Below, one piece after another: positions 18,823-58,792 of a DNA stretch of 64,000 nucleotides (the first letter of the stretch is position 1; each line of letters starts with the position of its first letter). This DNA is from Acidimicrobiales bacterium (lineage in GTDB: Bacteria > Actinomycetota > Acidimicrobiia > Acidimicrobiales > JAJPHD01). Made by a program: the position numbers and the translations under genes. Location: positions 118 through 64,117 of the forward strand of contig JAVKSL010000009.1 in assembly GCA_039583695.1 (NCBI GenBank). The letters are read 5' to 3'. The notes beneath the pieces are model-generated. The model searched no databases. It was not told the origin of the DNA and saw only the letters and a list, made by a program, of their open reading frames with translations.

Positions 18823-18826
18823 AGGC

Positions 18827-40496: not shown

Positions 40497-41103
40497 GGTA
40501 GTATTTGCCCCTTGCGCTCTCAGCGCCGGCGGGTCAGAATGCAGGGGCAGTCAAGGAGCAGGACCCACTTCCCCTTGGTCGACAGCTATTCGGCGCTGGC
40601 AGGTCGCTGGCGCCGGGGACGGAGGTTGGGAACCTGGGCGTGGGCGAGGCCACAGCGGGGAGCTGGCGCTCGCCGCTGGTCAAGATCGAGCGATCGGTCC
40701 AATAGCGGGCGAAGGCGGCCTCGCTGGACATGGCCGCCCCGGGTGGTCCGGACGCCCTCCGGGGCCGAATCGACGAGGAGGTAGCCCGCTGGTCGGCCGA
40801 TCATGCCAGGGGGCTCCGTCCCTTCGACCTCGCCGACCCGGACCTCGTGGCCCTGCGGGTCTATCGCAACCTCGCCGGATATGGCCCGCTGGAGTCGCTT
40901 CTCGAGGATCCCGACGTCTGGGAGATCGCCGTGAACGGCCCCGAGGAAGATCTTCGTCCGGCGGCATACCGGTCGCTCGGGCTACCACGATGAGGCCTTC
41001 CACGACGACGACCACGTCCTGCGCATCCTCACCAAGATCGTCGATGACTCCACGGCCTCGCACCGCAAGCTCGACCCTGCCGAGGGCCTCCAGGACGCCC
41101 AGC
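40497..41103. repeat. diverged direct repeat, copy A (homologous to 58191-58792)
   Basis: Colinear by-eye alignment with the region upstream of and inside cpaF. Both copies end with caggacgcccagc. Confidence 0.85.
40640..41103 (+). pseudogene. cpaF/tadA-like ATPase, 5' fragment with in-frame stop and frameshift
   Basis: ...GEATAGSWRSPLVKIERSVQ*RAKAASLDMAAPGG...DPDVWEIAVNGPEE, then a frameshift, then ...SGYHDEAFHDDDHVLRILTKIVDDSTASHRKLDPAEGLQDAQ. TAG at 40703-40705 where the intact copy has GAG. 1-nt insertion near 40945. Confidence 0.85.
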
Positions 41104-41185
41104 AGTTCTGGCCCACGATCCGCAGCGGATCCCGCTCCGGGCAACAGGGGGCGAACGGCTGGCTGGGCCCTACTTGGGGATCTGC

Positions 41186-41519
41186 GTCGACAGCCAGAAA
41201 CGGGTGGCCCGCAGGCTCGAGAAGCACTCGCCACCGATCCGGTGCCGGCTGTTCGGTGGCTCGCGTCGCTCCGAGGCGAACAGCCTCCGCCTGCGCCTCC
41301 GCCTCGTCGAGGTCATCCACGGCAAGGTCGAGATGCATCTGCTTGGGCGCATCACCGCCAGGCCACGTCGGAGGTTCGTAGCCCTCGACCTGCACAGCGG
41401 CAAGCCATCCCCGGTCGGTCTTCACCGCGACGAACGCGTCGCTCGTGAAGGCAACCGCCCCGCCGAGCAGCTCGGCCCAGAACTCCCCGAGGATGCTCGG
41501 AGACGAGCAGTCAAACGCT
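41186..41519 (-). pseudogene. VOC/glyoxalase-family gene lacking a start codon
   Basis: Hand translation gives ...IAFDCSSPSILGEFWAELLGGAVAFTSDAFVAVKTDRGWLAAVQVEGYEPPTWPGGDAPKQMHLDLAVDDLDEAEAQAEAVRLGAT...RVLLEPAGHPFLAV. No ATG, GTG or TTG upstream before the junction with the sigma fragment. Confidence 0.55.
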
Positions 41520-42276
41520 ATGGACCCGGGCGAAACAGAAGATCGCCGCGGCGAAGGTGCCCTACCGGGTGCCCGAGGACAGCGACCTGCCCGAGCGGCT
41601 CGGCGACGTGCTGACGGTGCTGTTCCTCGTCTTCAACGAGGGCTACCTCGCCACGGGCGACGGCGATCCGGTTCGTGCCGAGCTCACCGACGAGGCCATC
41701 CGACTGACGCGGATCCTGCGCCAGTTGCTCCCCGAGGAGCCGGAGGTCGCCGGCCTGCTCGGACTACTGGTGCTCATCGAGGCACGGCGTGAGGCTCGTG
41801 TGCGCAACGGGCACCTGGTCCCCCTCGACGAGCAGGACCGCGCCGGCTGGGACCTTGCGCTGATCGCCGAGGGCCACGACCTGGTCCGCTGGTGCCTCGC
41901 CATCAACCGACCCGGCCGCTACCAGATCCTCGCCGCGATCAACGCCGTCCACACCGACGCCCCCACGGCGAGCGACACCGACTGGTCGCAGGTGGTCGCG
42001 CTCTACGACCAGCTGACCCGGCTCGATCCCTCACCGATCGTCGCGCTCAACCGCGCGGTCGCGATCGCCGAGCTCGACGGCCCGGGTGTCGCCCTCGCGC
42101 TGGTCGAGCGGCTGCCGCTCTCCGGCTACCACGCATGGCATGCCACTCGTGCCGAGATGCTCCGCAGGCTCGGCCGCAACGCCGAAGCAAGAAAGGCGTA
42201 CGACGCTGCGATCGCCGCCACCCAGAACTCCGCCGAACGCGCCTACCTGAGCACCAAGCGCGGCGAGCTGGGCTGA
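41515..42276 (+). pseudogene. ECF-type sigma factor with C-terminal TPR-like domain (COG4941-like), N-terminal half missing
   Basis: ...RAKQKIAAAKVPYRVPEDSDLPERLGDVLTVLFLVFNEGYLA...INAVHTDAPTASDTDWSQVVALYDQL.... The sigma region 2 and most of region 4 are absent. The reading frame is closed at 41446-41448. Confidence 0.65.
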
Positions 42277-42524
42277 GCTGAGTGGTCCCACGGTTCGGGT
42301 ATCTGGCCGACGGCACTCGTCGTTCACACCGATGACGCTGTCCCAGTCCGCCAAGTAGCTGGACCGGGTCGCAGCGCTCGCGACCATCTCGCTACGGCAC
42401 GAACGATAGTTCGGTCACCGTTGACCCAAAGGTGGTTGCTCGTACGAGGCGGTCGGTGTACCGGCGACGAGTCCGATAATTGGCACCCGGTTTCTTCTGA
42501 CCGGCTCGCCTACGTAGAGTCAGC

Positions 42525-43073
42525 ATGGTGGGGTCCCCGCAGACGCTGAGTGAAACCGACCGACGTCGTGTCGCTGCATGGGCCGCTGACTGTGCCCAGC
42601 GGGTTCTCGGGCTGTTCGAGGTTGAGGCGCCAGATGATGGTCGCCCTCGGGCTCTCATCGCCCGGACCCGCGCGTTCGCCCAAGGAGAGCTGAACACGGC
42701 GGAGGAGATCCGCCGTCGGTTTGTCGGTGGCGTCGGTGCTGGTGATGTGAAGTCTCTCGCCGCAGCGGCCGCTGCCCGAGCCGCCGGACAGGCCGTCGCC
42801 ATCTGCCATATGGGCGCGCATGCACTGGGGGCCGCCGCTTATGCCGCCAAGGCTGCCAGCCTTGGGGACCCGAACCGGCCAGAAGCCGTCGAAGACGAGG
42901 TCCGCTGGCAGCTCGACCACATGTCTGCGGAGGTTCGCGCCGCTCTGCGAACCCTTCCGCCTATCGGTCAGAACTCGTCGGGTCCCCTTGGGCCAGGGCT
43001 TCTCGCATCGGGCCAACTCGGCATGATCGTCCGCCACCTCCAAGCGGGTCTCAGCCAGCTCGAACAAAACTGA
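42525..43073 (+). CDS. conserved hypothetical alpha-helical protein (recalls putative immunity-protein, Imm5-like family)
   Basis: 182-aa ORF: LSETDRRRVAAWAADCAQRVLGLFE...DGRPRALIARTRAFAQGEL...AAAAARAAGQAV.... The family assignment is from memory only. Confidence 0.55.
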   Translation: MVGSPQTLSETDRRRVAAWAADCAQRVLGLFEVEAPDDGRPRALIARTRAFAQGELNTAEEIRRRFVGGVGAGDVKSLAAAAAARAAGQAVAICHMGAHALGAAAYAAKAASLGDPNRPEAVEDEVRWQLDHMSAEVRAALRTLPPIGQNSSGPLGPGLLASGQLGMIVRHLQAGLSQLEQN

Positions 43074-43212
43074 CCCGAGGTCCCAGAACCGGGGTGTCGA
43101 GCGACACGCTCGATGAACATCGACGAGGTGTCTTCCGGAAGTGGTGGTGTCGAACACCTCGACGCCCACCACGCTCGGGTCGGCCCGCACTGCGATCCGG
43201 CTACGAGCGCGC

Positions 43213-43746
43213 TCATCGTGTTGGCCACCAGCCGTGCTGCCCCGGGTAGGGGCCTGGACGACCGCGACTCCTCTCTCCGTGGCGGCAGGATTCAGGGGAC
43301 GGAGGGTGCCCAGAGCTCGCTGGCGTCGCCAGCGGCGAGGCAGTCGCGATAAGCGCTGATCTTGTAGTGTAGTCGATGAGCTTGAGGTTCTCTTCGATCT
43401 TGTCAAGCTTGGCTTTGACGAGGGCGCGGTGGGACTCCATGAGGGCGCGTCGTTCGTCTTCGTTCCCACTCCCGACGGCGACGAGCGCGGCGTAGCGCCG
43501 GATCGTCCTTATGGGCATGCCGGTGGTGCGTAGCCTCGTGCAGATCTCGATCCATTCGAGGTGCGCCTCGTGGTAGCGGCGCCGACCGGCGTGGTTGCGT
43601 TCCACTGTGGTCACGATCAAGCCGGCCCGCTCGTAGTAGCACAGGGTGTGGACGCTGACTCCGCTGCGGGCCGCCGCCTCACCGATGGTCAGGGCCTCCC
43701 CTGGTTCTGGCCGGGGGAGTGTTTGCGGAGCCTTGACTTCTGGCAC
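43213..43746 (-). CDS. MerR-family transcriptional regulator (3' end altered by a 5-bp duplication)
   Basis: LTIGEAAARSGVSVHTLCYYERAGLI is the MerR HTH. A tandem gtagt-gtagt at 43364-43373 shifts the frame. Without it the ORF would end ...LIDYKISAYRDCLAAGD...VP* at 43292. Confidence 0.8.
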   Translation of the reverse strand: MPEVKAPQTLPRPEPGEALTIGEAAARSGVSVHTLCYYERAGLIVTTVERNHAGRRRYHEAHLEWIEICTRLRTTGMPIRTIRRYAALVAVGSGNEDERRALMESHRALVKAKLDKIEENLKLIDYTTRSALIATASPLATPASSGHPPSPESCRHGERSRGRPGPYPGQHGWWPTR

Positions 43747-44108
43747 GCTCTAAATCGTACGCTTCGCCTCATGGGCATGCCCTGGCTCCCAAGCTCGCTT
43801 CGCCAACGGGACTTCGCGCTGTTCTGGGCGCGTTTCTGGACCCTTCAGGCCTACCGAGCAGCGGACGGCGAGGATGGGCGGCGAAGAACTCGGCGGCCAC
43901 GTCCGGCGTAGAGCTTGAGGTACCGGCCGGCGGTCAGTCCCGGCGATGTTCCCAGCGGAACTAGCGCGCCGCGGCCAGCATCCCGGCGGCGCCACACGCC
44001 GCCATGATCCCCACGTCGCCCCACGCGTAGCCACCGCGGAACGGGAGCACCGACGCCACCTGGGTGAGCAGCAAGTCTCGCTGACCCGTCCCGCCGACAG
44101 GCGGATCG

Positions 44109-44564
44109 CTATCCGGACGCTGGCTCTGACACCCGCGCTGGCAGGTCGAGGAGCCGGCGGAGAGTGCTGTCTCCGACCTTGCTGGCGAAGTGCCGCCCTA
44201 CGGCGTCGACGAAGGCCGGTTGGGCGGCGTCGAACACCTTGCACCCCTCGGGGCTGAGGGTGGCGTAGACGGTCCGTCGGTCGCTCGGGTCGCGCTCGCG
44301 GGCGAGCAGGCCCCGCTCCTCAAGCCGGTCGACGGTCTTGGTCACCGCGCTCTTGGCGACACCGAGCGCCCCAGCGATCTCGACCATCCGCAGCCGCCGC
44401 CCCGCTGCCATAGCCACCTGGCAGAGCACCAGGTTCTCGGCGAGGGTCAGGCCGACCTTGGCCTGCAGGTCCCGGTTGATCAGGACCCGGACCCGATCGA
44501 CGACATCGCAGAGCCCCATCCACGCCTGGAGCCCCTCGGGCCGTTCGTTCGACGCATTGGACAC
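44109..44564 (-). CDS. MarR-family transcriptional regulator
   Basis: 151-aa winged helix: ...LRMVEIAGALGVAKSAVTKTVDRLEERGLLARERDPSDRRTVYATLSPEG. Confidence 0.88.
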   Translation of the reverse strand: MSNASNERPEGLQAWMGLCDVVDRVRVLINRDLQAKVGLTLAENLVLCQVAMAAGRRLRMVEIAGALGVAKSAVTKTVDRLEERGLLARERDPSDRRTVYATLSPEGCKVFDAAQPAFVDAVGRHFASKVGDSTLRRLLDLPARVSEPASG

Positions 44565-44841
44565 GACTCCCAGCCTACCTCATGGGTTGACAGGAGAACG
44601 ATTTTCCCTATAGTGTATGCTAGATAACCATCGTCTGGAGAACGGAGTGTGAGATGGATGCAGACCACACAGCGCCCTGGAGGCCGCTTGAGCGGGCAGG
44701 ACGCGCCGCTGCCCGATACCAGGCGAGGCGGGATGAGATCGAGCCGCTCATCGCACTCCTGGTCGACATCGCCGTTCTCGGTGCCTTGCTGGCCAGATGC
44801 GGCCCCACCCGCGGGCCGCAAACCCCGGTGGGGTGCTAAAG

Positions 44842-45213
44842 ATGAGCGTGTTCTCTCCAGCCGAGCTCGCCTACCTGGCCGAGCGCCGCCTCGGTCGCCT
44901 CGCCACCATCGACCGGGGCGGCCGGCCACACGTGGTGCCCCTCGGCTGGTCCTACAACCCGGACCTCGACACCATCGACGTCGGAGGGCGGGACTTCTCC
45001 CGGACCAAGAAGTTCCGTAACGCCCGGGCCAACCCCAAGGTCACCCTGGTGATCGATGACGTCCTGCCTCCCTGGCGGCCACGGGCGGTCATGGTCCGCG
45101 GGGACGCCGAGACCCTCGATGCGGCCACCGGCCACGGCGGCGAGGTGCTCGGGCCGATCATCCGCATCCACCCCGTTGAGGTCCTGAGCTGGGGCCTCGA
45201 CGCCGGCTCCTAG
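44842..45213 (+). CDS. PPOX-class (F420-dependent type) oxidoreductase
   Basis: ORF 44797..45213 trimmed to ATG 44842: MSVFSPAELAYLAERRLGRLATIDRGGRPHVVPLGWSYN...KFRNARANPKVTLVIDD. Confidence 0.85.
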   Translation: MSVFSPAELAYLAERRLGRLATIDRGGRPHVVPLGWSYNPDLDTIDVGGRDFSRTKKFRNARANPKVTLVIDDVLPPWRPRAVMVRGDAETLDAATGHGGEVLGPIIRIHPVEVLSWGLDAGS

Positions 45214-45248
45214 ACCCAAACCCGCTCCTCACCACAAAAGGAGCTTCC

Positions 45249-45884
45249 ATGTCCCACGAACCCATGTCTTCCGCACCCTCACGACAGGCAACATCGGCCA
45301 CCCGGGCCGGCGGCACTGCAGGCGCCGTCACGGCTGCAGTCGCCGTCTGGCTCGTCGCCCGCTACGGCGCCGGGGTGGCGCTGCGCCAACCCGCCTTCAG
45401 CGCCAGAGGGCACCCTGCACACCTGGCGGTCGGTTTCGTGATCGTCGTCTCCACGGTGGCATCACTTGCCGGATGGGGCGTCGCTGGCCTGTTCGGACGC
45501 GCCGCGCACCACCCCCGGATCACCTGGGTGATCATCGCCACGGTTGCAACCGCGCTCTCGTTGTCACTGCCGCCTTCTGGCCACGGGATCACCTCCACGC
45601 AACGTCTCGCCCTTGCCTGCATGCACCTCGCCCTCGCAGCCGTGCTGGTCCCGGCGTTCGCGGCGAGCCTCCCGACGCGGCGCCGCTCGGCGCGAGACCC
45701 AGCCAGAGCCCTCCCCCACAGGCGCAACCACCCAGCGTCGCGCTGCAAGCCCCCACGGATCCGACCGGAGCTCGGCGGCGATCTCGCGAAAGTCCTGGTA
45801 GAGCAGGCGCGACAAGCGAGTGTCCCCCACACTGGGGGAAGAGGTCCAGTTCAGGTGACGGCCCGGTTCCAGCCGGTGGTGTAG
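45249..45884 (+). CDS. hypothetical membrane protein (3' end probably not native)
   Basis: Good RBS (aaaggag, 7 nt upstream of the ATG). Three or four hydrophobic helices in the first ~140 aa. The Arg/Pro-rich tail after ~45690 overlaps a gene fragment on the other strand and looks like read-through past a deletion junction. Confidence 0.5.
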   Translation: MSHEPMSSAPSRQATSATRAGGTAGAVTAAVAVWLVARYGAGVALRQPAFSARGHPAHLAVGFVIVVSTVASLAGWGVAGLFGRAAHHPRITWVIIATVATALSLSLPPSGHGITSTQRLALACMHLALAAVLVPAFAASLPTRRRSARDPARALPHRRNHPASRCKPPRIRPELGGDLAKVLVEQARQASVPHTGGRGPVQVTARFQPVV

Positions 45885-45914
45885 ACGCCGAAGGCGTCGA
45901 GGATCTCCCGCCGG

Positions 45915-46013
45915 AAGGTCGTGGGCCGCGAGCAGGTCTGGCTCGGTGAGGGCTCGCCACACCGCTTCAGGCGGGTGCTTGAGGAATGCGTCGGTGTCGA
46001 TGGCGTCGGTCAA
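45915..46013 (-). pseudogene. SRPBCC (Aha1/START-like) gene, only the first ~30 codons recognisable
   Basis: TTG 46013 overlaps the arsR stop. LTDAIDTDAFLKHPPEAVWRALTEPDLLAA matches the N-terminus of the family (compare the intact paralog at 47657..48145). The sequence afterwards is unrelated. Confidence 0.5.
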
Positions 46014-46342
46014 TGCTGATCCTCCAACACTTCCAACGCATCCCGTAGGGCGTCCAGCCGTGCCCTCCAGAATCGCTCGTAGTGGGTGAGCCATTGCTCG
46101 ACCTCCCGCAGCGGCTTCGCGTTGAGCTGGTAGCGACGTTCCCGCCCTACGCGCTCCTCGCTGACCAAAGACGCTTCCTTGAGGATCCGCAGGTGCTGGG
46201 AGACGGCTGGACGACTGATGGAGAATCCGGCAGCGATGTCCCGTACCGGCAGCGGCCCGCCCGTCAGCGTGGCAAGAAGTGCGCGCCGGACGGGGCTGGC
46301 GATGGCAACGAAGACATCGACCCGCTCCTCTTGGTCAAGCAT
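46010..46342 (-). CDS. ArsR/SmtB-family transcriptional regulator
   Basis: ASPVRRALLATLTGGPLPVRDIAAGFSISRPAVSQHLRILKEASLV. Confidence 0.88.
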   Translation of the reverse strand: MLDQEERVDVFVAIASPVRRALLATLTGGPLPVRDIAAGFSISRPAVSQHLRILKEASLVSEERVGRERRYQLNAKPLREVEQWLTHYERFWRARLDALRDALEVLEDQH

Positions 46343-46711
46343 CAGCAGAAGTCTCTTGTAAGACGATGCCGTTGCCGTCTGGGTCGTCGAAGGTGACGAA
46401 ACGTCCCCACGGCTGCTCCTGGATCCCTCCCTTGATGACTACCCCCTTGGCGGTGAGATCGGCCACATCGCTATCGAGGTCGTCGGTCTCGAGCACCGTG
46501 CCCTTCACCGAACCTGCGGGCATGGTGGGAAACCAGGTGACCAAGGTGATCGCCGTCTGAGCTCCCTTCGGGGCGACCTGTACCCATCGGGCATCTGGTC
46601 CCATTGGGTTGTCCCGAGCAGGTCGAAGCCGAGCACGTCCACGTAGAAATCCCGGGCAAGATCCTGGTCGCGGACCGGAAGTGACAGCAGCTGGATGTGA
46701 GTGATTGCCAT
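46335..46711 (-). pseudogene. VOC/glyoxalase-family gene with a 1-nt frameshift
   Basis: ORF 46505..46873 gives MAITHIQLLSLPVRDQDLARDFYVDVLGFDLL.... ORF 46335..46721 gives ...DNPMGPDARWVQVAPKGAQTAITLV...QEQPWGRFVTFDDPDGNGIVLQE in another frame. The junction is near 46615-46625. Confidence 0.7.
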
Positions 46712-46896
46712 ACCTGTACAATAGGTAAGCAAGGTCTTACGTGTCAAGGGTACCTCCGTCATGCTCCAGGCCCCCGATCGCCTCGCGGCCTCGCTGTGCG
46801 GCACTGCGGGCGACGCCGACCTGCAGACAACTCGACAAACGCTCACGTGCCTCGCCACGATGCCCAACGACATTGCCTGACCCCAATGGCCCGTCC

Positions 46897-47175
46897 GTGA
46901 CGGCTCAGCGGGTAGCCGCCTACCGACTGGGCTTCAGTCGTCTGGCCGTGCCCATCGACGACGGCGACCCCGATGCCGACGACCGCTTGGCCGCCGACGC
47001 GGCGGACGGTGTCGTCGTCGATCATGGCAGCCGAATGGGTCGGCATCTGCAAGCGCGCTCCCGCTTCTTCGATCGCGTGACCGTCAACGCCCTTGAGGGC
47101 AATGTGACCCAGATCATCGTCGTCGGTGGCCGGTTACGACGGCCGCACCTTCCGCTACGGCGCGCCAGAGGTGTG
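46897..47175 (+). pseudogene. SAM-dependent (leucine carboxyl-type, TIGR00027-like) methyltransferase fragment, frameshifted and truncated
   Basis: VTAQRVAAYRLG...RSRFFDRVTVNALEGNVTQIIVVG, then in another frame AGYDGRTFRYGAPEV, then homology is lost. Confidence 0.5.
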
Positions 47176-47342
47176 TTGTGGCGGCTCCGACGTCGCCGTG
47201 CCGCTTCAAGCTTCGGCCAACTGCGCTCTGCCCGGCGATCCAGAGCAGTGAAGGCCGCCACCTGGTTGCCGCCTCGGACTCAGCGAGCCAGCGCTCGCTG
47301 GCGCAGTTGACAGCTCTGTTGGTAAGTGTAGACTGACGGTCC

Positions 47343-47660
47343 ATGGTAGCTTACCGATCTTCGGCGTTGCTGGCGTTGGGTGATCCCACCCGCCTGGCAA
47401 TCTTGGAGCGGCTGGCGGACAGCCCGCTTGCAGTGGTCGATCTCACCAAGGATCTGCCGGTCAGCCGTCCAGCGGTGTCGCAGCACCTGCGTGTGCTCAA
47501 AGACGCCGGATTGGTCATCGACGAGGCCGTGGGCAACCGTCGCATCTACCGGATCGACCCCGACGGTCTGGCCGCCCTGCGAGACCAGCTTGACCGATTC
47601 TGGGGCAAAGCCATGACCGCCTACAAGGCGACCGTCGAAGGATCCAGCGAGGAGAAATGA
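47343..47660 (+). CDS. ArsR/SmtB-family transcriptional regulator
   Basis: LGDPTRLAILERLADSPLAVVDLTKDLPVSRPAVSQHLRVLKDAGLV. Confidence 0.9.
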   Translation: MVAYRSSALLALGDPTRLAILERLADSPLAVVDLTKDLPVSRPAVSQHLRVLKDAGLVIDEAVGNRRIYRIDPDGLAALRDQLDRFWGKAMTAYKATVEGSSEEK

Positions 47661-48145
47661 TGAGCCAGCAACCATCTTCTACCAGTGTTCGCCATTCGGT
47701 TGTGGTCGACGCTCCGATCGACAGGGCGTTCAAGACCTTCATCGAGGACTTCGGCCGCTTCAAGCCGCCCGAGCACAACATGCTCGGGGTGGACATCGCC
47801 GAGACCGTCTTTGAGCCTCGCGTCGGCGGGTCCCTCTACGACCGTGGCGTCGATGGCAGCGAATGCCGTTGGGGTCGCGTCCTCGCTTACGAGCCTCCCC
47901 ATCGAGTGGTCGTCAGCTGGGACATCAGCCCCTCCTGGCAGATCGAGACGGATCTCGATAACACGAGCGAGGTCGAGGTGCGTTTCGTTACCGAGGCGCC
48001 GGGGCAAACCCGGGTCGAGCTGGAGCATCGCAACCTGGAGCGACACGGCCAAGGCTGGGAGGGTGTCCGGGAGGGAGTGGACGGCGAGCAGGGCTGGCCC
48101 CTTTACCTTCGTCGCTACGCCGACCTGTTTATGGCCGAGGGTTGA
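47657..48145 (+). CDS. SRPBCC (Aha1 domain) family protein
   Basis: 162 aa. 4-nt overlap with arsR. VRHSVVVDAPIDRAFKTF...VVVSWDISPSWQIE...RVELEHRNLERHG. Confidence 0.85.
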   Translation: MMSQQPSSTSVRHSVVVDAPIDRAFKTFIEDFGRFKPPEHNMLGVDIAETVFEPRVGGSLYDRGVDGSECRWGRVLAYEPPHRVVVSWDISPSWQIETDLDNTSEVEVRFVTEAPGQTRVELEHRNLERHGQGWEGVREGVDGEQGWPLYLRRYADLFMAEG

Positions 48146-48810
48146 TGCCGGCGACTTATACGCATCGGGCAGCTGGCAGCAACGGCTCCGTAGACGCGAT
48201 GGCAATGGCCCGCGAGGAACGGACCGAGATGGCCGACTTCCTGGCCTCGTTGCGATCAGAGCAGTGGGATCAGGAGAGCCTCTGCCGGGGGTGGCGTCTC
48301 CGAGACGTCGCGGCGCACGTCGTCAGTTACGAGGAGCACGGTTGGGTCGACCTGGCCACGCGGCTGGCGAAGGCTCGCCTTCGTCCGGGTCGAGTAAACG
48401 AGGTGGCGCTGGCCGAGTACGCGGCGCTTGAACCGCAGATGCTGGTGGCGTTCTTGCGCGAGCACCTCACGCCCCGTGGTGCTACCGCGCGGTTCGGCGG
48501 CCGGGTTGGACTGGTCGATGCCCTCATCCACCATCAGGACATGCGCCGTCCGCTCGGCATGCCACGAAAGATCCCTCCCGAGCGGTTTGCGTGCGCGCTG
48601 CCGTTCGCGGTGACGGCTCCACCGCTGCGGGGGTTCTGGAACGCCCGCGGCGTCCGACTGGTGGCTACCGACCTCGACTGGACGTGGGGAAGAGGACCCG
48701 AAGCCCGAGCTCCAGCCGAAGCGGTGCTCATGGTCCTCGCAGGGCGGCACGGCGTGGCTGATGAACTCACCGGTCCGGGAGCGTCGATCCTTCAGCAGCG
48801 GCTTGGGTGA
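48142..48810 (+). CDS. maleylpyruvate isomerase-family mycothiol-dependent (DinB-like) enzyme
   Basis: ...ERTEMADFLASLRSEQWDQESLCRGWRLRDVAAHV.... TIGR03083-like N-terminal domain. Start may be ATG ~48199. Confidence 0.8.
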   Translation: MMPATYTHRAAGSNGSVDAMAMAREERTEMADFLASLRSEQWDQESLCRGWRLRDVAAHVVSYEEHGWVDLATRLAKARLRPGRVNEVALAEYAALEPQMLVAFLREHLTPRGATARFGGRVGLVDALIHHQDMRRPLGMPRKIPPERFACALPFAVTAPPLRGFWNARGVRLVATDLDWTWGRGPEARAPAEAVLMVLAGRHGVADELTGPGASILQQRLG

Positions 48811-49112
48811 GCGGCGCCGACACTTATGTTGCGACTACGTCCTCCAGACAGGAGGAGCCCGGGCACGCGCGACCGAGGTGCGGACCTGGTTAGTGACAGA
48901 GGTTCAGCAGGTTCAGAGGAAACGCACTGACGCGACACTATCGCCGACGGCCAACGGCGCCAGGATCCGGAACGGCGGCGTGCTACGATCGGGAGTGGCA
49001 CCTGGAGGGCGCCACCGGGTCCGCGGGAAGGACTGAGTCCACCTCCGAATCACCCTCCTGTGGCCTCTTCCTCGGCCTGAGCAGCGGACCGCAGGCGCAG
49101 GAGGGAGACACC

Positions 49113-49385: not shown

Positions 49386-49427
49386 CAGCCAGCTCCGGCG
49401 AGCCGTGAAAGACATCCTGGTGTGCCC

Positions 49428-50383: not shown

Positions 50384-50580
50384 GGGTCGCCAAGGGTCGG
50401 GAATCGGACGTGGAACGCTGGGGACAGCCGTGGGGTTACCTACCCCGGTGCCTCGCCGCCGGAAACGATTCGGCCAGTATGAGGGTCGTCCCGGGTCTCG
50501 TTCGCTGAAGCCCAACCCCCTACGGCGGCCGCCCGCGGTCGAGGTGGGCGAACAACATGTTCGCACCGCAGGGGATCGGC

Positions 50581-50930
50581 CTACCGGCGACCGATCTCCA
50601 TGCCCCAGTGCTCGGCAATCAACCCAGCGGCGTCTAACCGCAGCGCTTCGACGGTCTGTCGCTCGACCGGCACGCCACTTCGGTCCCTGCCGCGCCAGGA
50701 CAGCACCGCAACACCGAGATCATCCGTCCAGGCGGCCTCAGTTGCAACGCGCAGCGAGCTCGCCAAGGCTGCGCCGAGCGCCAGCCACTACGGCGGCGCA
50801 CTCTTGCGGTCCGATGAGCTCTGAGCCTTCCGGCCGCTGGTGGTCCAGGTTGTCCACGCTAAAGATCGCGCAGGCCGCTCGAACCTCGCCGCTCGAGAAG
50901 CATCGGCCATCCTCGATCGTAGGCGACAAG
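50581..50930 (-). pseudogene. possible NTF2/SnoaL-like gene, frameshifted
   Basis: ORFs 50738..51040 (...EVRAACAIFSVDNLDHQRPEGSELIGPQECAAVVAG...) and 50581..50766 (...AAWTDDLGVAVLSWRGRDRSGVPVERQTVEALRLDAAGLIAEHWG) are in different frames. The latter has the typical SnoaL-like C-terminus. Confidence 0.35.
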
Positions 50931-52203
50931 ACAGGCGCAAGGTCAGTTGCGCGCAGGCGTAGCGAGTTCGGCGGGCGGGAACGTCCGGGCGCCAGGAAGC
51001 CCTGTCGTTCGCATCGGCGCGGCTCAGGTCGATCCTGCACGTCTCGGTGGTCGTCGCTTGCGGCGTCCTTACGCGGAACCTCCTGCGGACAAGCGGCAGC
51101 CGCCGGTCAGGCGAACATGTGCGCGTCCCGTAGCGGGATCGTCGGCGGGCCAACGATGGTAAGCGCTGGCTACCATCGTTGGCGAGGATTCCACGTTCGC
51201 ACACGTGCTGGTGGTGGTCGCTTTCGATCCTTGGCACCCAGAACGATCCTTCCGGTACGCCTTGGAGCAACGTCCCGGCCGGAGCCGCATGCATGCAGAT
51301 CGACGGTGCGGCATGCGGGACGAGGGCGGCCGTCAGCACGGAACGGGAGCACCGAACGTCCACCTCACAAGGGAGGCCGGTGGTACAGAACGACAGGCTC
51401 GACCGGCGGCCGCCGCACGCTGCGACCGAAGCGGCGATCTGCACCCTCGATCTGCTGGGCCAGCCTGGCGCAGAACGCGCGTTCGCGCGATGCCGCCCCG
51501 CCGACATCCGTCCCCACAGCTCCTGGTGGGAGACCGTAGGCCATCGTGGCGCTGTTCGCCATCAGGTCGACCGACCCGGTCGGTAGCCGACTTGGACCTA
51601 GTTGGGCTGAAGGACAGGTATCAGAATGAACTTATTCGGGGGTCGGGTGGCCTGGAGAGTCGCGGTGCGGACGAAGCAGCTGAGTGAAGATGCCGCTGGA
51701 TGAGTGCGTGACTATGACAGAGACTGCGGCTCGGCTCGGAATCCCCCGTGGCGGGCCGGGGGCGAGCCTGTGCGACCGGGGAGCCTGAACTACCGGCCAG
51801 CCGGGGCAACCTGGGCCTCGCCAGAGGCCAGAACTATTGGAGCTATTGGCCGAGATGGCCGCCAACTGCGGCGAGTGTTTCGCTCTGCTGTGCCCGGCGG
51901 GTGGCTGGTGGTGGTGACCAAGAAGATGCGCCGGGCCGGCCGGCTGGTCGATCTGGCCGGGATCACGAGCCGCCTTGGCGCGGGAGGCGGGCTGGGCCTA
52001 CGTGCAGCGCGCGCCTTCGCCGGGACCATGCACGCCTACCGCAGTGCCCGGCGAGCCCGCCAAAGCGTGATCAACCAGAGGACGGCTATGCCGCCATCCA
52101 TCCCGCACGACGCACGACGAACGGCCTACGGCGACGTGAAAGAGCCGGCGAGGCACTGGGTCATCACCGATAGACGATCCACTACCGGACGGCCCGAAGG
52201 CAA

Positions 52204-52350
52204 TCAGGCCGACCGCTGGAACACGGATACGACCGTCGGTCGGCCCAGGTTGGCACGGCTCGCCTTGACTTGCTCAGGCAGCTCGTCGGGGGTCTCGTAG
52301 GTTTCGGCTGTTGCGCCCTCCTCGGCCAGCAGGTTGTCGATCTTGCTCAT
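52204..52350 (-). CDS. small acidic protein, putative partner (antitoxin-like) of the upstream disrupted ORF
   Basis: ATG 52350 inside ORF 52204..52413: MSKIDNLLAEEGATAETYETPDELPEQVKASRANLGRPTVVSV.... ATGA overlap with the upstream ORF's stop. ggagaggagga SD. Confidence 0.4.
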   Translation of the reverse strand: MSKIDNLLAEEGATAETYETPDELPEQVKASRANLGRPTVVSVFQRSA

Positions 52351-52652
52351 GCATCCTCCTCTCCGTAGAGGTGTCGGTCTCGTTGGTTCGCCCTCCATGC
52401 GTTGGCACCCCACCAGTCCCCGTCAGGCTGTTCTGCCAGCTCGGCGGCAGGGTCGACCAGGATCACGGTGAGCACCGTGCCGGCGGTGACCGAGTAGCCG
52501 ATTGCTCTCACGGCGTGGCCGGATCAGCTGGCGGGGTCAGGCGTCAACCAGATGGCGTGCTCGTCGGCGACCGCCACGGCGGCCCATCCGGGCTCGACAG
52601 CGTGGCGCGTACTGATGCAACCGGCCCGCTTGCTCCAGTCGATTCGAAGCAC
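52347..52652 (-). pseudogene. ~100-aa ORF interrupted by one in-frame TGA (toxin-like small protein, family not identified)
   Basis: Hand translation from GTG 52652: VLRIDWSKRAGCISTRHAVEPGWAAVAVADEHAIWLTPDPAS*SGHAVRAIGYSVTAGTVLTVILVDP...DWWGANAWRANQRDRHLYGEEDA*. TGA at 52524-52526 is in the same frame on both sides. Confidence 0.4.
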
Positions 52653-52781
52653 GCCTACAGCTTACTACAAACACCTACGCTGGCTGTACGCAGCCCTATC
52701 CCCTTCCGGCGATGCATGAACTGCGCGTGCGTCAGTGTGCTACCCGACCAAGGGCGCCCGCCATCGTGACGAACACGTGTG

Positions 52782-52811
52782 CGTCCCGCTAACCGATGGG
52801 TCAGCGGGACG
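52782..52811 (-). terminator. candidate terminator hairpin downstream of vapC
   Basis: Perfect 9-bp stem cgtcccgct/agcgggacg with a 12-nt loop, about 30 nt past the vapC stop. No U-tract. Confidence 0.4.
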
Positions 52812-52839
52812 GCCCGCACCGGGAGCGAGTCCAGCTGGC

Positions 52840-53244
52840 TTATGGTTCCCGCCGAACTACGGGGAGCCCCGCGATCTTTGCGTCGAGGCGGTCAAAGCTG
52901 AGAAGGCCATCTAGGTGTCGTTGCTCCACCAACGCGACCAGGTAGGCATCGGGCCAGTCCATGTTCCGTTGCCCATAATGCTCCAACGTTCGACGCAGGA
53001 GCGCTTCGTTGTCGACGGCGACGGAGGCTAACGACAGGGTGGCTTCGACGAGGCGAGCCACCTCGTGCCTGGGCCGGGCATAGGGGCCCTGAAGGACATA
53101 GACGATCTCGGTCAAGGTGAGGTCGGTGAGCACCAGGCTGCGGGGCGGAGCCTCGGTTAGAGCCGAGGTGGCCCGGGCAGCCATCTCGGGTGGCTGCCCG
53201 GTGAAGTGGCGGAGGACCACGTTCGCATCAAGGGCTTCGCGCAT
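52840..53244 (-). CDS. vapC: PIN-domain toxin VapC
   Basis: ORF 52840..53325 trimmed to ATG 53244: MREALDANVVLRHF...LTDLTLTEIVYVL...DWPDAYLVALVEQRHLDGLLSFD. Overlaps the antitoxin stop. Confidence 0.8.
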   Translation of the reverse strand: MREALDANVVLRHFTGQPPEMAARATSALTEAPPRSLVLTDLTLTEIVYVLQGPYARPRHEVARLVEATLSLASVAVDNEALLRRTLEHYGQRNMDWPDAYLVALVEQRHLDGLLSFDRLDAKIAGLPVVRREP

Positions 53245-53516
53245 CACCCCGAGAGATTGTCGTGACGCTCCGCCTGTGCTGACCACGCCGCTTCGCGAAG
53301 GTTCGGCCAGTCTGCGCCCGTCCACTCAGCGGGGATGGGCACCGAGCCAGCCAGGGCCACGAAGTCCGCCGCCTTGCGTAGCTGGGCGTGAGGAGTGCCA
53401 CGCCCAGGGTCCACTTCGAAGATCACGTCGTCGCCCGGTTCGAGGTCCAAGGCTCGACGGACCGCTGCGGGGATCGTTACCTGGCCTTTGGCCGTGATCC
53501 TGCTTGCTACTTCCAT
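53244..53516 (-). CDS. AbrB/MazE/SpoVT-family antitoxin
   Basis: MEVASRITAKGQVTIPAAVRRALDLEPGDDVIFEVD is the SpoVT-AbrB looped-hinge-helix motif. Confidence 0.82.
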   Translation of the reverse strand: MEVASRITAKGQVTIPAAVRRALDLEPGDDVIFEVDPGRGTPHAQLRKAADFVALAGSVPIPAEWTGADWPNLREAAWSAQAERHDNLSG

Positions 53517-53616
53517 GCTCCTTACCATAGTGCCTAGTAAGGCTCTACCGTATCGTAAGGAGATGTCGGCCAGCTTCCCAGTGGAGGGTCGACGAGTGAG
53601 ACAGGCGCCGGAGCGA

Positions 53617-54225
53617 TCAGTCGGTCGACAGCGAGGGCCATCGCTGCTGGGCCCAATCGAGCCACGCTCGCCCTGAGCGACACCCTGGTGGGTCGTCGCA
53701 GTCGGTGCCAGCCATCTCTTCCACGTCAGGGACCTCGAACTGGTTCCTCCACCGGTCGAGATCCGAAGCGGTCATGGGGAAGGTCTCTTGAGGCGCCTGC
53801 CGCCAGCGTTGTTCGATGCGGGCCAGCTGGGTCGTCCGATCCACCGGTATGTAGACCAGCTGAAAGCAGCCATGCTCCTGCTCGACCAGCCAACGCAGCG
53901 CCGACCGCTCATCCCTGGCCCAGCAGCCGAAGTCCAACACGACGTTCGTGCCCAACCGGAGCAGCTGCAACGCGAGGGTGATGAGGCGTCCCTCCAGCAC
54001 GTCGCGCTTGCCACCGGCCTCGGACTCGCCGAACAACGGGATCATCCACTCGTCCGGGGTGAGCCGCAGCGCGGCATGTTCGTCCGCCAATCGCTTGGCC
54101 ACCATCGTCTTGCCGGCGCCGGGCAGGCCGACGACCAAGTAGAGGCTGGCCACAACCTCATCCTGCCACCACCAACCTGGCCTGTGCTGCCGTCGGAGGC
54201 GCGCTCGTTGGGGCATGGCCTTCAA
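53617..54225 (-). CDS. P-loop ATPase/kinase (AAA_33 / zeta-toxin-like fold)
   Basis: LYLVVGLPGAGKTMVAKRLA (Walker A) and ...NVVLDFGCW... (Walker B-like). Start may be GTG ~54156. Confidence 0.7.
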   Translation of the reverse strand: MKAMPQRARLRRQHRPGWWWQDEVVASLYLVVGLPGAGKTMVAKRLADEHAALRLTPDEWMIPLFGESEAGGKRDVLEGRLITLALQLLRLGTNVVLDFGCWARDERSALRWLVEQEHGCFQLVYIPVDRTTQLARIEQRWRQAPQETFPMTASDLDRWRNQFEVPDVEEMAGTDCDDPPGCRSGRAWLDWAQQRWPSLSTD

Positions 54226-54792
54226 GGAGCGGCCTTGTGTCCATCTTGCTCTCGGAGGATCTGATCGAACTCGGATCGCTCGACCGCTGCCCGCAGCATG
54301 TCACTTGCAGACCTGCTTCGCGATGCCCGCCAGCGCCGCAGAGACAGGCCCCGACTCCGGCGAGCTGAAGTCGGTACGCATTGACACCACCGGTTACCGC
54401 CCGGCGCGTGGGCTCTACCGCTGGCCATGGAGCTGGTCGGCCGTGTGGACAAGTCCTTACGGCGGTCGCGCCTGCCATAAGACCCTCACCCGGACGGCAG
54501 TCGGCCAGTACGGCATCGGCGGTTGTGGCATGAGCATCATCAGCGGCATATGACATACGTCCGATGGGGTGAGCTTGCCGCTTTAGGGCTTCGGTGAGCT
54601 ATTAGCTGCCGGTCCCGCCATGCGCCTACTCGCCTCCAAACACTGACGCTGGTTCCAAACCCCCGGGCGTCAGGCGTACTGCGCCCCGAAAGCCGTGCGA
54701 ATCAGCCAAAAAGCGCTGCCGGTCTTCTCCGCTGGACTGCAGCCGCTGGCCGGTGATGCTCACCGTCCTGCAGTGACCGCTGACCGCGCCCT

Positions 54793-55671
54793 TCACATGT
54801 TCGAGCTGTCCGCTGGTACCCCGCGCGGCGCAGGCGGAGCGCCGCCGTCCTTCTCGGCCGGCGTTGTGCAGCTCACCCCCAGCGTGTAAGCCGTCATCGA
54901 CAGCGAGCCGTAGGCGTAGCCGTCGATGAGCACGGAGACGGCCTCGTCGCCAGCGCCGGCGAGTCCGGCTAAATACAGGGCGGGGATGAAGTGATCCGGC
55001 GTTGGCACCGCGCTGCGGTAGTCGGTGTGGGCGTCCAACGTCGGGAACTCTGTGGGCGAGGTGAGCATCGTCTGCTTGGCTCCCTCGTTGAACCGCTGCG
55101 CCCAGTCAAACCCGTCGTCCTTGAGCGACGGGTCCACCTCCCGCAGGTTGTGCACCACGTTGCCGCTAGCCACCACCAGCACGTCACGCTCGCGCAGGGG
55201 CGCGAGTTTCGCGCCGAGCTTGAGGTGGTAGTCGAAGTCCCTCTCGGCGTTGATGCTCAGCTGCACAACCGGGATCGAGGCGTCCGGAAACGCATGGACC
55301 AGCACCGACCAGGTCCCATGGTCGATGCCCCAGCTATCCAAATCAGCGCCGACCCAAGTCGGCTTGGCAATGTCGGCCACCTCGTCGTACAGCTCCGGCA
55401 ACCCTGGAGCGGGGTACTGGACGTCGAGAAGCTCCTGCGGGAAGCCGTAGAAATCGTGGATGGTGCGTGGCCGCGGCATTGCCGTGACGGCGGTCGCGTT
55501 GACATACCAGTGCGCGCTGATCACCAGGATCGCCCGGGGGCGTGGCACCGCCTGCCCGAAGGCACGCCAGGCCGCGGTGTACCGGTTCACCTCGAGGGCA
55601 TTCATCGGGCTGCCGTGGCCGAAGAACGCCGCCGGCATAAGAGTCCGGGTCTCACCAATGCAAACGCTCAT
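54793..55671 (-). CDS. 4,5-DOPA dioxygenase extradiol-like (class III extradiol dioxygenase, YgiD family)
   Basis: ORF 54793..55944 trimmed to ATG 55671 (aggag RBS): MPAAFFGHGSPMNA...ILVISAHW...DHGTWSVL...SGNVVHNL.... Confidence 0.85.
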   Translation of the reverse strand: MSVCIGETRTLMPAAFFGHGSPMNALEVNRYTAAWRAFGQAVPRPRAILVISAHWYVNATAVTAMPRPRTIHDFYGFPQELLDVQYPAPGLPELYDEVADIAKPTWVGADLDSWGIDHGTWSVLVHAFPDASIPVVQLSINAERDFDYHLKLGAKLAPLRERDVLVVASGNVVHNLREVDPSLKDDGFDWAQRFNEGAKQTMLTSPTEFPTLDAHTDYRSAVPTPDHFIPALYLAGLAGAGDEAVSVLIDGYAYGSLSMTAYTLGVSCTTPAEKDGGAPPAPRGVPADSSNM

Positions 55672-56858
55672 GCCAAACTCCTGTCTATCCGACCGTACGG
55701 GCAGCCCTACCAGTGGCGCCTGATGGCAACGCGGCCCTGGCCGCCGTCCTGCGCGGCAGGCTAACAGGCGCAGGGCCGAGGGGTCGGTGCTCGTTTCCGG
55801 TCCCGCGGCGGTCTCTGGCCGACGACGGGCGAGACGGCCTGTATCCCGCTCGCAAACGGCCCCGGTCGCCTGGCGGGGTTCGAGGTGGCGGACCGACACC
55901 TGACCGCGCTCACGGCCTCTGTGGGCAGCCCGGTTGCCCGGCACTGCATCGCCTAGTCGCGATCACCCAATGCTCAGGGCGCGAGCACGGTGTAGGACCT
56001 CATCGCCCGGCAGGGACGTCTGCGATGCGGCTGACCGCCGACGATGCTGACGTTGGGGCGGCGAGCTGGTCGAGCCCGTTGGCCGGCACGGCCCTCGGGC
56101 ACTCCGGCCGATGAGCACCCATCGGACGTGCCTGGTGTCAATGAGACCAGTCGAGCCTGGACGTCATACCCTGCAAGTCCGCAATGGCCGAAACTCGAGC
56201 AGCACTCAAACCTTCGACGCCGCAGAGGGCGAGATCGTCGCTTTGCCATTGACACTTTCCGATGCAGTTCCCAGCGTCCGCCCCCTTGCGATTGAGCACG
56301 AATACGCGAGATCGCCGCGCGTCATCGCCTCGTCGCCGATCCTCCCGAGTGGTCGTCGCTCGTGGGTCGCAAGGCGCTCCGAGACGCGGCGCGTGCCCGG
56401 TACATCGAGGCTTGTCGATGGTCCAGCTCGGCTAGAAGACCGTTCCTTCCTCCGGCGTGTTGGGACGTCTTCGCGTGGGAGCTGGTCCGAGACGCCGCAG
56501 AAGCCGCGGCCGCCGAGCAGAAGGTGAGCGTCGGCACCATCAGCAGTTGCGCGCTCGTGTTCGTCGTCGAGGGGAGCTGGTCTCGCCCGGCGTGGCGTTG
56601 TGCTCGGTAGCTGCGGCAACAGACGCTGGCACAACGACGGCGATCCTCCGCGAGGTGTTCTAGTTGTCGCTCCCAGCCTCCTGATCACTGCTCGCAACGG
56701 AACCGAGACCTACTGAGAACACTGGATTGCTTGGTGGCGGACCGCGTGCTCAGCCAAATCCTATTAGGCCTACGACGCCTCCCGCCACGGTGGTGCTGTC
56801 CGCCTCGCCGCCCAGATCGCCCCCGCTGGGGTGGCACCTGCGTCGGCGATCCTGACGC

Positions 56859-57230
56859 CTATTGGCTCTTCTCTTGTTGCTCGGTCTCGATCAGGCGCGC
56901 CGCCGCGGCTCGATACACGGCGTGCTCGTCGCGGGCAGCGATGACCAATACGTCTCTCGTGGTGTTGTCGACCTGCCGATGCCGGTAGACGACGCGAAAG
57001 CGCTGAGGATGGCGGCCGGCGATGTCGAACTTTACGCGGGCCAAGCCATGTAAATCGGCGCTGACCCGGCGTTCACCCAGCTCCTTGCCGGTGATGCGGC
57101 CGTGGGCTAGGTCCGCGAGAGTCCCCTGGATAGCGTCGAAGACCTCGGGATCGAGGGTCCGCAGGTCGTCGCTGATGTCGCGGTGGAACGTCAGGCGGAA
57201 GCGAGGAGGGCGCTCGGCTCCACGGCTCAC
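56859..57230 (-). CDS. RelE/ParE-family toxin
   Basis: 123 aa. 4-nt overlap with the upstream Phd-like ORF. ...LHGLARVKFDIAGRHPQRFRVVYRH...DVLVIAARDEHAVY. Confidence 0.7.
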   Translation of the reverse strand: MSRGAERPPRFRLTFHRDISDDLRTLDPEVFDAIQGTLADLAHGRITGKELGERRVSADLHGLARVKFDIAGRHPQRFRVVYRHRQVDNTTRDVLVIAARDEHAVYRAAAARLIETEQQEKSQ

Positions 57231-57508
57231 CCCTGTCGGTCAGCTCGCAGGGCACCGATGAGGTCGTTCACAGCGGCGTGACTGAGCCGCTGGCCGTCGT
57301 TGCTGGCCAGCCGACGTCGGGCCAGCTCGATGTCAAAGTCGTCCTCCGCCTCCTCCAGCAGCTTTTCCCAGACGTCGACCGGGACGATCACGCCCTGAGC
57401 ACGCCGGTGCGAGCCGAAGTAGACCGGTTCTCCCTCGCCAGCGTCGAAAGACCTGGCGATGCGGTGGAGCGCCTCACGGGCCTCGCCGACGGTGATGACC
57501 TCAACCAT
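57227..57508 (-). CDS. Phd/YefM-like antitoxin
   Basis: MVEVITVGEAREALHRIARSF...EPVYFGSHRRAQGVIVPVDVWEKLLE. Confidence 0.7.
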   Translation of the reverse strand: MVEVITVGEAREALHRIARSFDAGEGEPVYFGSHRRAQGVIVPVDVWEKLLEEAEDDFDIELARRRLASNDGQRLSHAAVNDLIGALRADRQG

Positions 57509-58190
57509 GGGAGCTATCGTATCGGAAGTCGTACGGGTAGCGGTACTGATCCTTGATTGTGGCTGATCTTCTCGGCGACCCAGTTGGCCAACGGGCTACG
57601 CGATCCGCCCAGGCCGGAGGTGGTGCTGGGCGGCAGAGTGTCCGTATAGGCCGCCCGATGAACCGTCCCGGTCAGGGGGCGTCAACTGCAACAGCCGCTT
57701 CATCCCGGTCGGCTTCATCTTCGAGCAACCTGGCCGGAGCGAGTACCGGGATCCTTGTAGGAGCAGGCACTGCGTCGCCCGACCGCCAGGTCCATGGGCC
57801 GCCCAGAAGGTCCTAGTCTGGTACCCCGTCCTCCTCGCCGCGGGTCTCGCCAGACGAGTACCGAACGACGGTTATGGCATCGCCGCCACCGAGTGCGCTC
57901 GTGGAGCCGGGGTCCCGAAGGCGGGCGGGGCTGAGGCACTCATAACGACGCCGACCGGCGGCTCAACCCGGCCGTCCCGCCTACAAGCGCCCAGCTTGCT
58001 TGCTTCAGCACACATCGGGTCTGCCGCTGCCGTCGGGCACAGGACCATCGGCGTCAAGCCGTCGCAGTTGGGGATCCTCTGACCGAGCCTGCCTGAGGCC
58101 GGCAGGCGCGCTGGCACTTCTCGGCCGGAGTGAGCTTGGAAGCTCGGTTCGGCGTGCAAAAGTCGCAAAACAGCGCATTTCGGACATACC

Positions 58191-58792
58191 CGTATGATTT
58201 GCCACTTGCACGACAGGACAGATTGAGGCAGACTGGCTCCAGTACGACCCACTTCCCCCGTGGCTCAACGGCATAGGTGGTCGCCGGTCCTGCGCTGGCG
58301 CCCGGTGAGAAAGGGTGTGGCTCTTGCGTGTGGGCGAGGCCACAGCGGGGAGCTGGCGCTCGCCGCTGGTGGAGATCGAGCGTGCGGTCCAGGAGCGGGC
58401 GAAGGCGGCCTCGCTGGACATGGCCGCCCCAGGTGGTCCGACCGCCCTGGCAGCTCTGGTCGGCGAGGAGGTCGCCTGCTGGTCGGCAGACCACGCCCGG
58501 GGGCTGCGAGCATTCGACCTGGCCGACCCGGACCTGGTCGCCGGGCGGGTCTACCGAAACCTGGCGGGCTACGGCCCGCTGGAGGCCCTGCTGGACGACC
58601 CCGACGTGTGGGAGATCTCGGTCAACGCTCCCGACGAGATCTTCGCCCGCCGCCATACAGGGCGCTCGGGCTACCACGACGAGGCCTTCCACGACGACGA
58701 CCACGTCCTGCGCACGCTCACCAAGCTGGTGGACGATTCGACCGCCTCCCACCGCAAGCTGGACCCAGCCGAGGGCCTGCAGGACGCCCAGC
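58191..58792. repeat. diverged direct repeat, copy B (homologous to 40497-41103)
   Basis: Covers ~125 bp upstream of cpaF plus its first ~160 codons. Confidence 0.85.

Follow-up and report, generated by a model that had tools for sequence, protein, structure and literature searches.

When phage 21 or e14 integrates at icd, the element brings along a replacement for the gene end, and what remains of the native end is a displaced pseudogene, whose differences from the new end are mainly synonymous; the system depends on an integrase and a defined core, and it is the 3′ end of icd that is replaced. Homology-facilitated illegitimate recombination (HFIR), which was defined in Streptococcus, Acinetobacter and Pseudomonas and tested in Escherichia coli (PMC3240628), has been invoked to explain displaced gene ends and orphan immunity genes at the type VI secretion system and Rhs loci of Vibrio cholerae (PMC5361080). 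A single crossover of a recircularised fragment, referred to as the "SCO" class, results in a partial duplication of the anchor gene (PMC3240628). Here, we analysed a stretch of 64,000 nucleotides from an Acidimicrobiales bacterium (assembly GCA_039583695.1, contig JAVKSL010000009.1; in the following "the window"), in which the promoter region and the 5′ end of cpaF, the ATPase gene heading a tad pilus operon, are present twice and bracket about 17 kb of accessory DNA. With about as much confidence as doubt, we propose that this DNA is foreign and was captured by a recombination event for which cpaF homology served as the anchor, the left join being illegitimate as in HFIR.

With HFIR, the locus would share a one-sided anchor in a conserved gene, an illegitimate joint at the other end, foreign cargo, the orphaning of the old gene end and the dispensability of a recombinase. 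It differs from the described cases in the size of the insert, which is about 17 kb compared to about 1 kb in the experiments, in the orphan, which is a 5′ end with its promoter and not a 3′ end, and in the host, which is an uncultured Acidimicrobiia-like actinobacterium. As in the phage 21/e14 system at icd, an apparently functional, intact hybrid gene and a displaced fragment are arranged as direct repeats with mostly synonymous differences; however, no integrase was found here, the 5′ end and the promoter are replaced, and the foreign tract probably continues past the repeat. The final architecture is identical to that of a Campbell-type single-crossover integration, i.e. the outcome known from suicide plasmids, but the reciprocal mosaic predicted by such an event was not seen, and the homology is only 84% identical. 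With regard to the tad locus, or widespread colonization island (CpaF/TadA, TadB, TadC), the target is a typical actinobacterial tad operon headed by cpaF; unlike in transfers of the tad island, what was inserted is an upstream cargo with a new leader and 5′ end, and not the tad island itself.

The two copies of the cpaF 5′ end, designated copy A (left) and copy B (right), form a diverged direct repeat (Table 1). In a local alignment, 452 of 537 positions are identical (84%), with a score of 586 compared to a maximum of 34 for shuffled sequence, and the same pair was recovered by MAFFT and by the repeat-finder families D1, D3 and D5. A weaker and patchy similarity of the promoter/leader regions reaches back upstream to about 40468 and 58158, respectively, and the total span amounts to 0.54–0.63 kb, with cpaF kept intact. 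These alignments are in line with the first-pass annotation, which was made from the sequence alone and had described a colinear, diverged repeat of about 600 bp, as well as with its observation that both copies finish on one 13-mer, CAGGACGCCCAGC, past which the sequences are unrelated. A true breakpoint follows CAGGACGCCCAGC in copy A only; copy B is an uninterrupted gene at this position. According to our own arithmetic, an identical run of 13 nt at about 86% identity has a probability of about 14%, and the 13-mer is no more than chance; within the repeat, the MAFFT alignment shows identical runs of 34–41 nt.

Copy A is dead, as had been noticed before, and both lesions could be located: counting from the GTG at 40640, codon 22 is an in-frame TAG (40703–40705), and one extra base at about 40937–40948 shifts the reading frame. 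Copy B represents codons 1–154 (to 58792) of an intact cpaF, and here, too, the first description of an intact CpaF-like gene of 480 codons at the head of a tad locus was borne out, given the match to PF00437 and the tadB, tadC and small tad genes that follow. The order cpaF-tadB-tadC is syntenic with 59 related loci, which characterises a tad/Flp pilus locus. The cpaB/cpaE-like genes, which are found upstream of cpaF in two related loci (L061 and L062, see below), are absent from the window, and a search for further tad relics in the window, including the insert, found none. The closest CpaF among 5.8 billion proteins is 84% identical, and an exact-sequence look-up of the window CpaF (from 58315) and of the pirin encoded to its left returned no record.

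The divergence between the two copies is of the kind expected between genes under selection. Substitutions are distributed 16/8/49 over codon positions 1/2/3, and 134 of 154 residues are identical between the peptides once the frameshift is repaired. According to the Nei-Gojobori method, the nonsynonymous divergence (dN) is 0.077 and the synonymous divergence (dS) 0.59, with a dN/dS of 0.13. This dS, which agrees with the earlier statement that the copies are not recently duplicated, corresponds to that between copy B and its orthologues of other species (0.58 for L054 and 0.52 for L061). In an alignment of six sequences, the changes that occur in copy A only are distributed 2/3/13 over the codon positions, from which we conclude that purifying selection acted on copy A during almost its entire separate history and that the copy was inactivated recently. 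Taken together, the low dN/dS, the orthologue-level dS and both codon-position spectra point to two once-functional alleles that were recently brought together. A segmental duplication followed by decay, one of the two explanations offered in the first-pass annotation, was dropped, since the dN/dS of 0.13 and the two spectra contradict neutral divergence in place; the other, a "long-immobilised" island, fits poorly with a copy A that has undergone little neutral decay.

A second diverged direct repeat is located inside the insert and consists of an intact marR gene and a fragment of its 3′ 98 codons, which is situated 5.33 kb away, is 86.6% identical and contains two stop codons and a 1-nt indel. 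In this pair, the substitutions are evenly spread over the codon positions (16/9/14), which looks like a pattern of neutral duplication and decay and provides an internal contrast to the cpaF pair. The combination of dN/dS and codon-position spectrum can thus serve as a practical rule to separate a displaced allele from a duplicate that decays.

A scan of a genome collection for CpaF resulted in 59 related loci, of which only one (L054) exceeded 72% identity; the informative relatives (L060–L064) were found by protein search and inspection of their contigs. The nearest CpaF proteins, which are 78–84% identical, belong to metagenome-assembled genomes of Acidimicrobiales, Acidimicrobiia or Actinomycetota. 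In L064 (CpaF P0004, 78% identical), positions 3–131 encode pirin residues 8–50 (84% amino acid identity over 43 residues) in the orientation opposite to cpaF, and a complete cpaF-tadB-tadC follows after about 240 nt, i.e. the empty site is present, and pirin divergently adjoins the cpaF leader as it does in the window. Partial pirin-like sequence also occurs about 0.8 kb upstream of cpaF in L063 (56–64% identity to residues 188–305), while glgP and a VapBC pair are located upstream of cpaF in L054 and L061, respectively. Among the 59 loci of the scan, neither pirin nor any gene of the insert was found within 10 kb of cpaF. The adjacency of pirin and cpaF thus appears to be the ancestral state in at least a part of the group. 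From the empty site in L064 we conclude that copy A is the native 5′ end, which stayed where it was, and that the interval from 41104 to about 58160 is an insertion; the first-pass annotation had suggested looking for this arrangement and had considered that an inserted interval displaced the native cpaF 5′ end, with which L064 agrees. Each related genome gave only one locus of this tad type. A second partial cpaF copy was not detected in the 59 related loci, a search of low power given the lack of close relatives in the databases.

At the left junction, an illegitimate joint between unrelated sequences is observed, in which codon 154 of cpaF is directly followed by the 3′ region of a glyoxalase gene on the minus strand. 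The joint cuts cpaF in the middle of its codon series and abuts the end of another gene, which we count in favour of an illegitimate left join. The glyoxalase reading frame has no stop before the junction and continues for about 40 codons into antisense cpaF, and this tail of the open reading frame (ORF) matches the antisense of cpaF from other loci. Since the motif GHPF of the encoded protein is found about 35 codons ahead of the junction, the glyoxalase gene is complete or nearly so either way; if expressed, its product would carry a chimeric C-terminal tail.

A leader of about 170 nt precedes cpaF and is conserved in a narrow clade, in which it probably comprises the promoter and the 5′ untranslated region (5′UTR). 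It consists of a TAnnnT box, TTTGCCnCTTGC, GGCAnACTG and then CCACTTCCC, the latter about 80 nt before the start codon. The leader is not present in the more distant loci that were checked, including L062, where a gene is located directly upstream of cpaF. A structured RNA was considered for this region and dropped, as there was neither an Rfam match nor covariation support (the RNAalifold covariation term was positive, i.e. penalising). A scan of metagenomes with the leader motif TTTGCCNCTTGCN{35,52}CCACTTCCC gave 45 matches, none of which encodes CpaF or pirin, and all of them are therefore regarded as chance matches.

The leader in front of copy B (leader B) is closest to that of L061 (distance 0.15, 85% identity), followed by L064 (0.23, 77%), and is distant from L054, L063 and the leader in front of copy A (leader A), with distances of about 0.40–0.42 and only about 58% identity to leader A. 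Leader A contains an insertion of 10 nt, and its divergence from all other leaders is about 40% (distances about 0.37–0.44). For the 3′ end of cpaF and for tadB and tadC, the lineage of the window is an outgroup to L061, L064 and L054, and tadB and tadC are probably resident. Since leader B groups near L061 and L064 but tadB/C behave as an outgroup, the locus is a mosaic. Along the locus, the share of lineage-unique sites in the window climbs from about 14–22% to about 40% (permutation p < 0.004). In a change-point analysis, the best-fit breakpoints, which vary with the taxon set, mostly fall between 58.9 and 59.9 kb, and position 58792 is disfavoured by a log-likelihood difference of 3.5–7.6. 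The foreign-like tract hence appears to extend past 58792, and the right-hand homologous crossover probably took place between about 58.9 and 59.9 kb, both on statistically soft grounds; to this extent the result departs from the earlier idea of an element limited to the first 154 codons. A reciprocal mosaic within the repeat was not found; in each segment compared, copy B is at least as close to L061 as copy A is. A comparison of dS for the affinity of the cpaF N- and C-terminal parts to L054 and L061 was without power.

The inserted tract is atypical in composition. The G+C content at third codon positions is 0.778 in its genes vs 0.830 in the backbone (p = 0.005), and its tetranucleotide distance from the backbone is raised, with the tad genes returning to backbone-like values; the compositional check proposed in the first-pass annotation thus had a positive outcome. 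Together with the grouping of leader B with L061 and L064, this composition suggests that the insert is of foreign origin. Neither about 40 candidate ORFs nor the six-frame translations of all gaps without domains between 41104 and 58330 (48.8–49.8, 50.35–52.86, 55.94–56.88 and 57.56–58.33 kb) contained a Pfam domain of a recombinase, relaxase or transposase, and the gap scans yielded only the MarR fragment; the first inspection of the sequence had likewise recognised no integrase, recombinase or relaxase. There is no tRNA gene in the window, and no related plasmid was found, plasmid matches being confined to single genes. The initial model of a discrete element, which carries a promoter and the 5′ part of cpaF and crosses over at the 13-mer, is left without support, given the lack of a mobility gene, of a similar plasmid and of a reciprocal mosaic.

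Based on these comparisons, we infer the following course of events. In the ancestral resident chromosome, pirin would have been located divergently beside cpaF-tadB-tadC. DNA of at least 17–18 kb from a related but distinct lineage, which probably consisted of a cluster of accessory genes and, behind it, the cpaF leader and 5′ coding sequence of the donor itself, would then have recombined into the pirin/cpaF site. At the right end, homologous recombination would have occurred inside cpaF, downstream of the repeat, and at the left end, the incoming DNA would have been joined illegitimately to the resident cpaF at codon 154. The resident promoter and the first 154 codons would thereby have been stranded as copy A, and the operon would now be expressed from the imported leader B via a mosaic, intact cpaF.

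Several points weigh against this scenario. The position of the change-point depends on the taxon set, the signal within cpaF alone is not significant (p of about 0.14–0.25), and the heterogeneity could also be based on gene-specific rate differences instead of recombination. As neither the recipient nor the donor has a close relative in the databases (best CpaF 84%), the right crossover, any deleted resident DNA and microhomology at the junction cannot be seen. In addition, the contig stops about 0.85 kb past the window, which limits the view of the right-hand context, and the HFIR events obtained in experiments were mostly of about 1 kb and not of 17 kb (PMC3240628).

The main rival is a Campbell-type single crossover, which is a close variant of HFIR: (re)circularised foreign DNA with the 17-kb cargo but only the leader and the first 154 codons of cpaF would have integrated in a RecA-dependent manner within the homology of about 0.6 kb. 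As a single crossover duplicates the homology, the left copy would end up truncated, and this is essentially the model of the first-pass annotation without an integrase. The architecture matches exactly, with a truncated left copy, an intact right copy behind its own promoter and the cargo in between, conjugation experiments with E. coli most often gave a partially duplicated anchor gene (PMC3240628), and the identical runs of 34–41 nt inside the repeat also speak for such an event. However, this variant predicts a switch within the repeat or at its end, which is not favoured by the data: no reciprocal switch was detected in the repeat, in which copy B is at least as close to L061 everywhere and only the last 90 nt or so would still offer room for one, the gene of copy B seems to behave as foreign past 58792, and an identity of 84% over 0.6 kb makes a poor recombination substrate, so that we consider this course unlikely. 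Similarly unlikely, in our view, is a degraded site-specific island, i.e. an element with a tyrosine or serine recombinase that brought a replacement for the promoter and 5′ end, targeted cpaF by a crossover at CAGGACGCCCAGC or close to it and was deprived of its integrase afterwards, as a mirror image of phage 21/e14 at icd. The repeat, which is sharp at its right end and fuzzy at its left, the restored gene and the empty site in L064 would fit such an element, as would the island-like cargo of toxin-antitoxin and regulator genes, among which many are decayed and an integrase could have been deleted. Against this stand the empty searches for a recombinase or relaxase domain in the candidate ORFs and six-frame gap scans and for a second copy of the element in relatives or plasmids, the recent death of copy A, which sits badly with a long-decayed element, the chance nature of the 13-mer, and a left end that abuts a gene end and does not resemble a typical att arm.

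Two further explanations were considered. If the genome had held two resident tad loci, one beside pirin and a second, further along, of xenologous or anciently paralogous origin, a later deletion from codon 154 of the first cpaF to the glyoxalase gene, by which the remainder of the first locus was lost, would explain the truncated copy A without any special integration mechanism, and horizontal transfer of tad loci is known from the literature on the widespread colonization island; nevertheless, we judge this improbable, given that tadB and tadC behind copy B are an outgroup, unlike leader B, that the window has no other tad relics and that related genomes carry one such locus each. An assembly chimera of two related organisms, with the join at 41103/41104, has to be considered for a single metagenomic contig of 64.85 kb that lacks close relatives, but it is hardly credible: a join at shared sequence would yield one hybrid cpaF and not a fragment, 17 kb and a full gene, copy A has a nonsense codon and a frameshift while all backbone genes are intact, and the sequence past the junction is unrelated to cpaF. 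An HFIR-like capture therefore remains our preferred reading.

The coordinates of the locus and the domain content of the insert, as obtained by Pfam searches of candidate ORFs and by the six-frame gap scans, are listed in Table 1. To the left, positions 1–40.4 kb hold core genes, namely those for RNase III, PlsX, RecG, FakA, a class A penicillin-binding protein, a class I tRNA synthetase, MoaA, MoeA, TldD/PmbA, a peptide ABC transporter, GT87, a carboxyltransferase and pirin. With regard to the cargo, the earlier list was right about MerR, the two ArsR regulators and the presence of several truncated or frameshifted genes, whereas its two MarR regulators are one intact gene and one fragment. 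Its count of three or four toxin-antitoxin modules was not confirmed exactly; we found VapBC and a Phd-like antitoxin, which, like a TetR_C-like fragment, is a weak match below the Pfam cutoff; likewise, its count of about ten pseudogenes was not confirmed exactly.

Table 1 Features of the pirin–cpaF locus in the window and of the leaders and VapC/VapB pair in related loci. Coordinates refer to the window unless a locus is named.
Feature	Coordinates	Strand	Description
pirin gene	39441..40448	-	Pfam Pirin and Pirin_C; final gene of the 40-kb core backbone
Leader A	40449..40639	+	Native pirin/cpaF intergenic region with blocks TTTGCCnCTTGC and CCACTTCCC, based on alignments and distance matrix
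Copy A	40640..41103	+	Orphaned 5′ 154 codons of the resident cpaF, cut at codon 154
Left junction	41103..41104	.	cpaF codon 154 joined to unrelated DNA near the 3′ end of a minus-strand glyoxalase gene
Aligned repeat	40562-41103; 58246-58792	+	Direct repeat, local alignment
Shared 13-mer	41091-41103; 58780-58792		CAGGACGCCCAGC
Leaders, compared regions	40468-40639; 58158-58329; L054:6560-6745; L061:2890-3057; L063:2300-2454; L064:228-395		Leaders in the window and in four related loci
Glyoxalase reading frame	40985-41632	-	Runs across the left junction; stop at 40982-40984
Accessory insert	41104..58157	.	About 17.05 kb
Insert, first part			Domain order: glyoxalase; 5′-truncated DUF6596/TPR sigma-factor tail; Imm5-like; MerR; MarR; PNPOx; DUF6069
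Insert, middle			Domain order: ArsR; frameshifted glyoxalase; ArsR; AHSA1; MDMPI_N; MarR fragment
Insert, last part			Domain order: methyltransferase; VapC/VapB (PIN and MazE); AAA_33 kinase; LigB dioxygenase
DUF6596 and TPR protein	41449-42276		Opposite-strand glyoxalase gene overlaps its 5′ end
marR gene	44098-44404	-	Intact
marR fragment	49428-49733		3′ 98 codons
arsR inverted repeat	46146-46218; 47461-47533		73 nt
Domain-less region	50350-52860		2.5 kb
445-aa ORF	50202-51539		Looks spurious by codon statistics
VapC/VapB pair, window	52840-53771
VapC/VapB pair, L061	L061:2218-2897		Directly upstream of the cpaF leader
Leader B	58158..58329	+	Putative promoter/5′UTR, predicted to drive the intact cpaF now
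Intact cpaF/tadA ATPase gene	58330..59757	+	475 aa from GTG at 58330; 480 aa from 58315; PF00437
tadB and tadC	59754..61528	+	T2SSF-type platform proteins; PF00482 on tadC

Within the insert, a few further observations were made. Sigma-70 region 2 and 4 domains are expected ahead of DUF6596, and the protein with DUF6596 and TPR domains is without them, which marks another internal breakpoint. The two arsR genes are opposite-strand paralogues around the frameshifted glyoxalase gene and contain an inverted repeat with 75% complementarity. In the domain-less region, none of the six frames has a Pfam domain and the coding signal is weak; it may be composed of decayed DNA or of unknown genes.

Two observations concern the related loci. 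The VapC/VapB proteins of L061, which also owns the leader nearest to leader B, are 48% and 34% identical to those of the window pair. The other locus, L062 (GCA_039583615.1, JAVKSQ010000001.1, positions 10001–21401; CpaF 74% identical), encodes SAF/RcpC, a 444-aa protein, CpaF and about 228 codons of tadB; this tadB remnant is directly followed by genes for a TraG/TrwB coupling protein, a TrwC relaxase and then HicA and DruA, and tadC is missing. L062 thus looks like another tad locus disrupted by foreign DNA, and the conjugative genes beside it are a hint that tad loci could repeatedly serve as landing sites within the group.

The event described here is an ordinary scar of horizontal gene transfer and involves no new mechanism, system or kind of mobile element. 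That the 17-kb tract is or was a mobile island homing to cpaF, with a cassette of promoter and 5′ cpaF that targets and repairs the gene, is highly improbable; the mobility of such an island could be due to host recombination alone or to a recombinase of an undescribed family encoded at 50.35–52.86 kb. As a capture anchored in cpaF, the locus would show, in a clean natural case, how the conserved start of an operon can serve as the homology anchor for a large block of foreign accessory genes. Such a capture would have left behind a datable orphan, consisting of the old promoter and 5′ end, and would at the same time have swapped the regulatory leader of the operon for a foreign one, which indicates that capture events of this type would occur in uncultured Acidimicrobiia-like actinobacteria.

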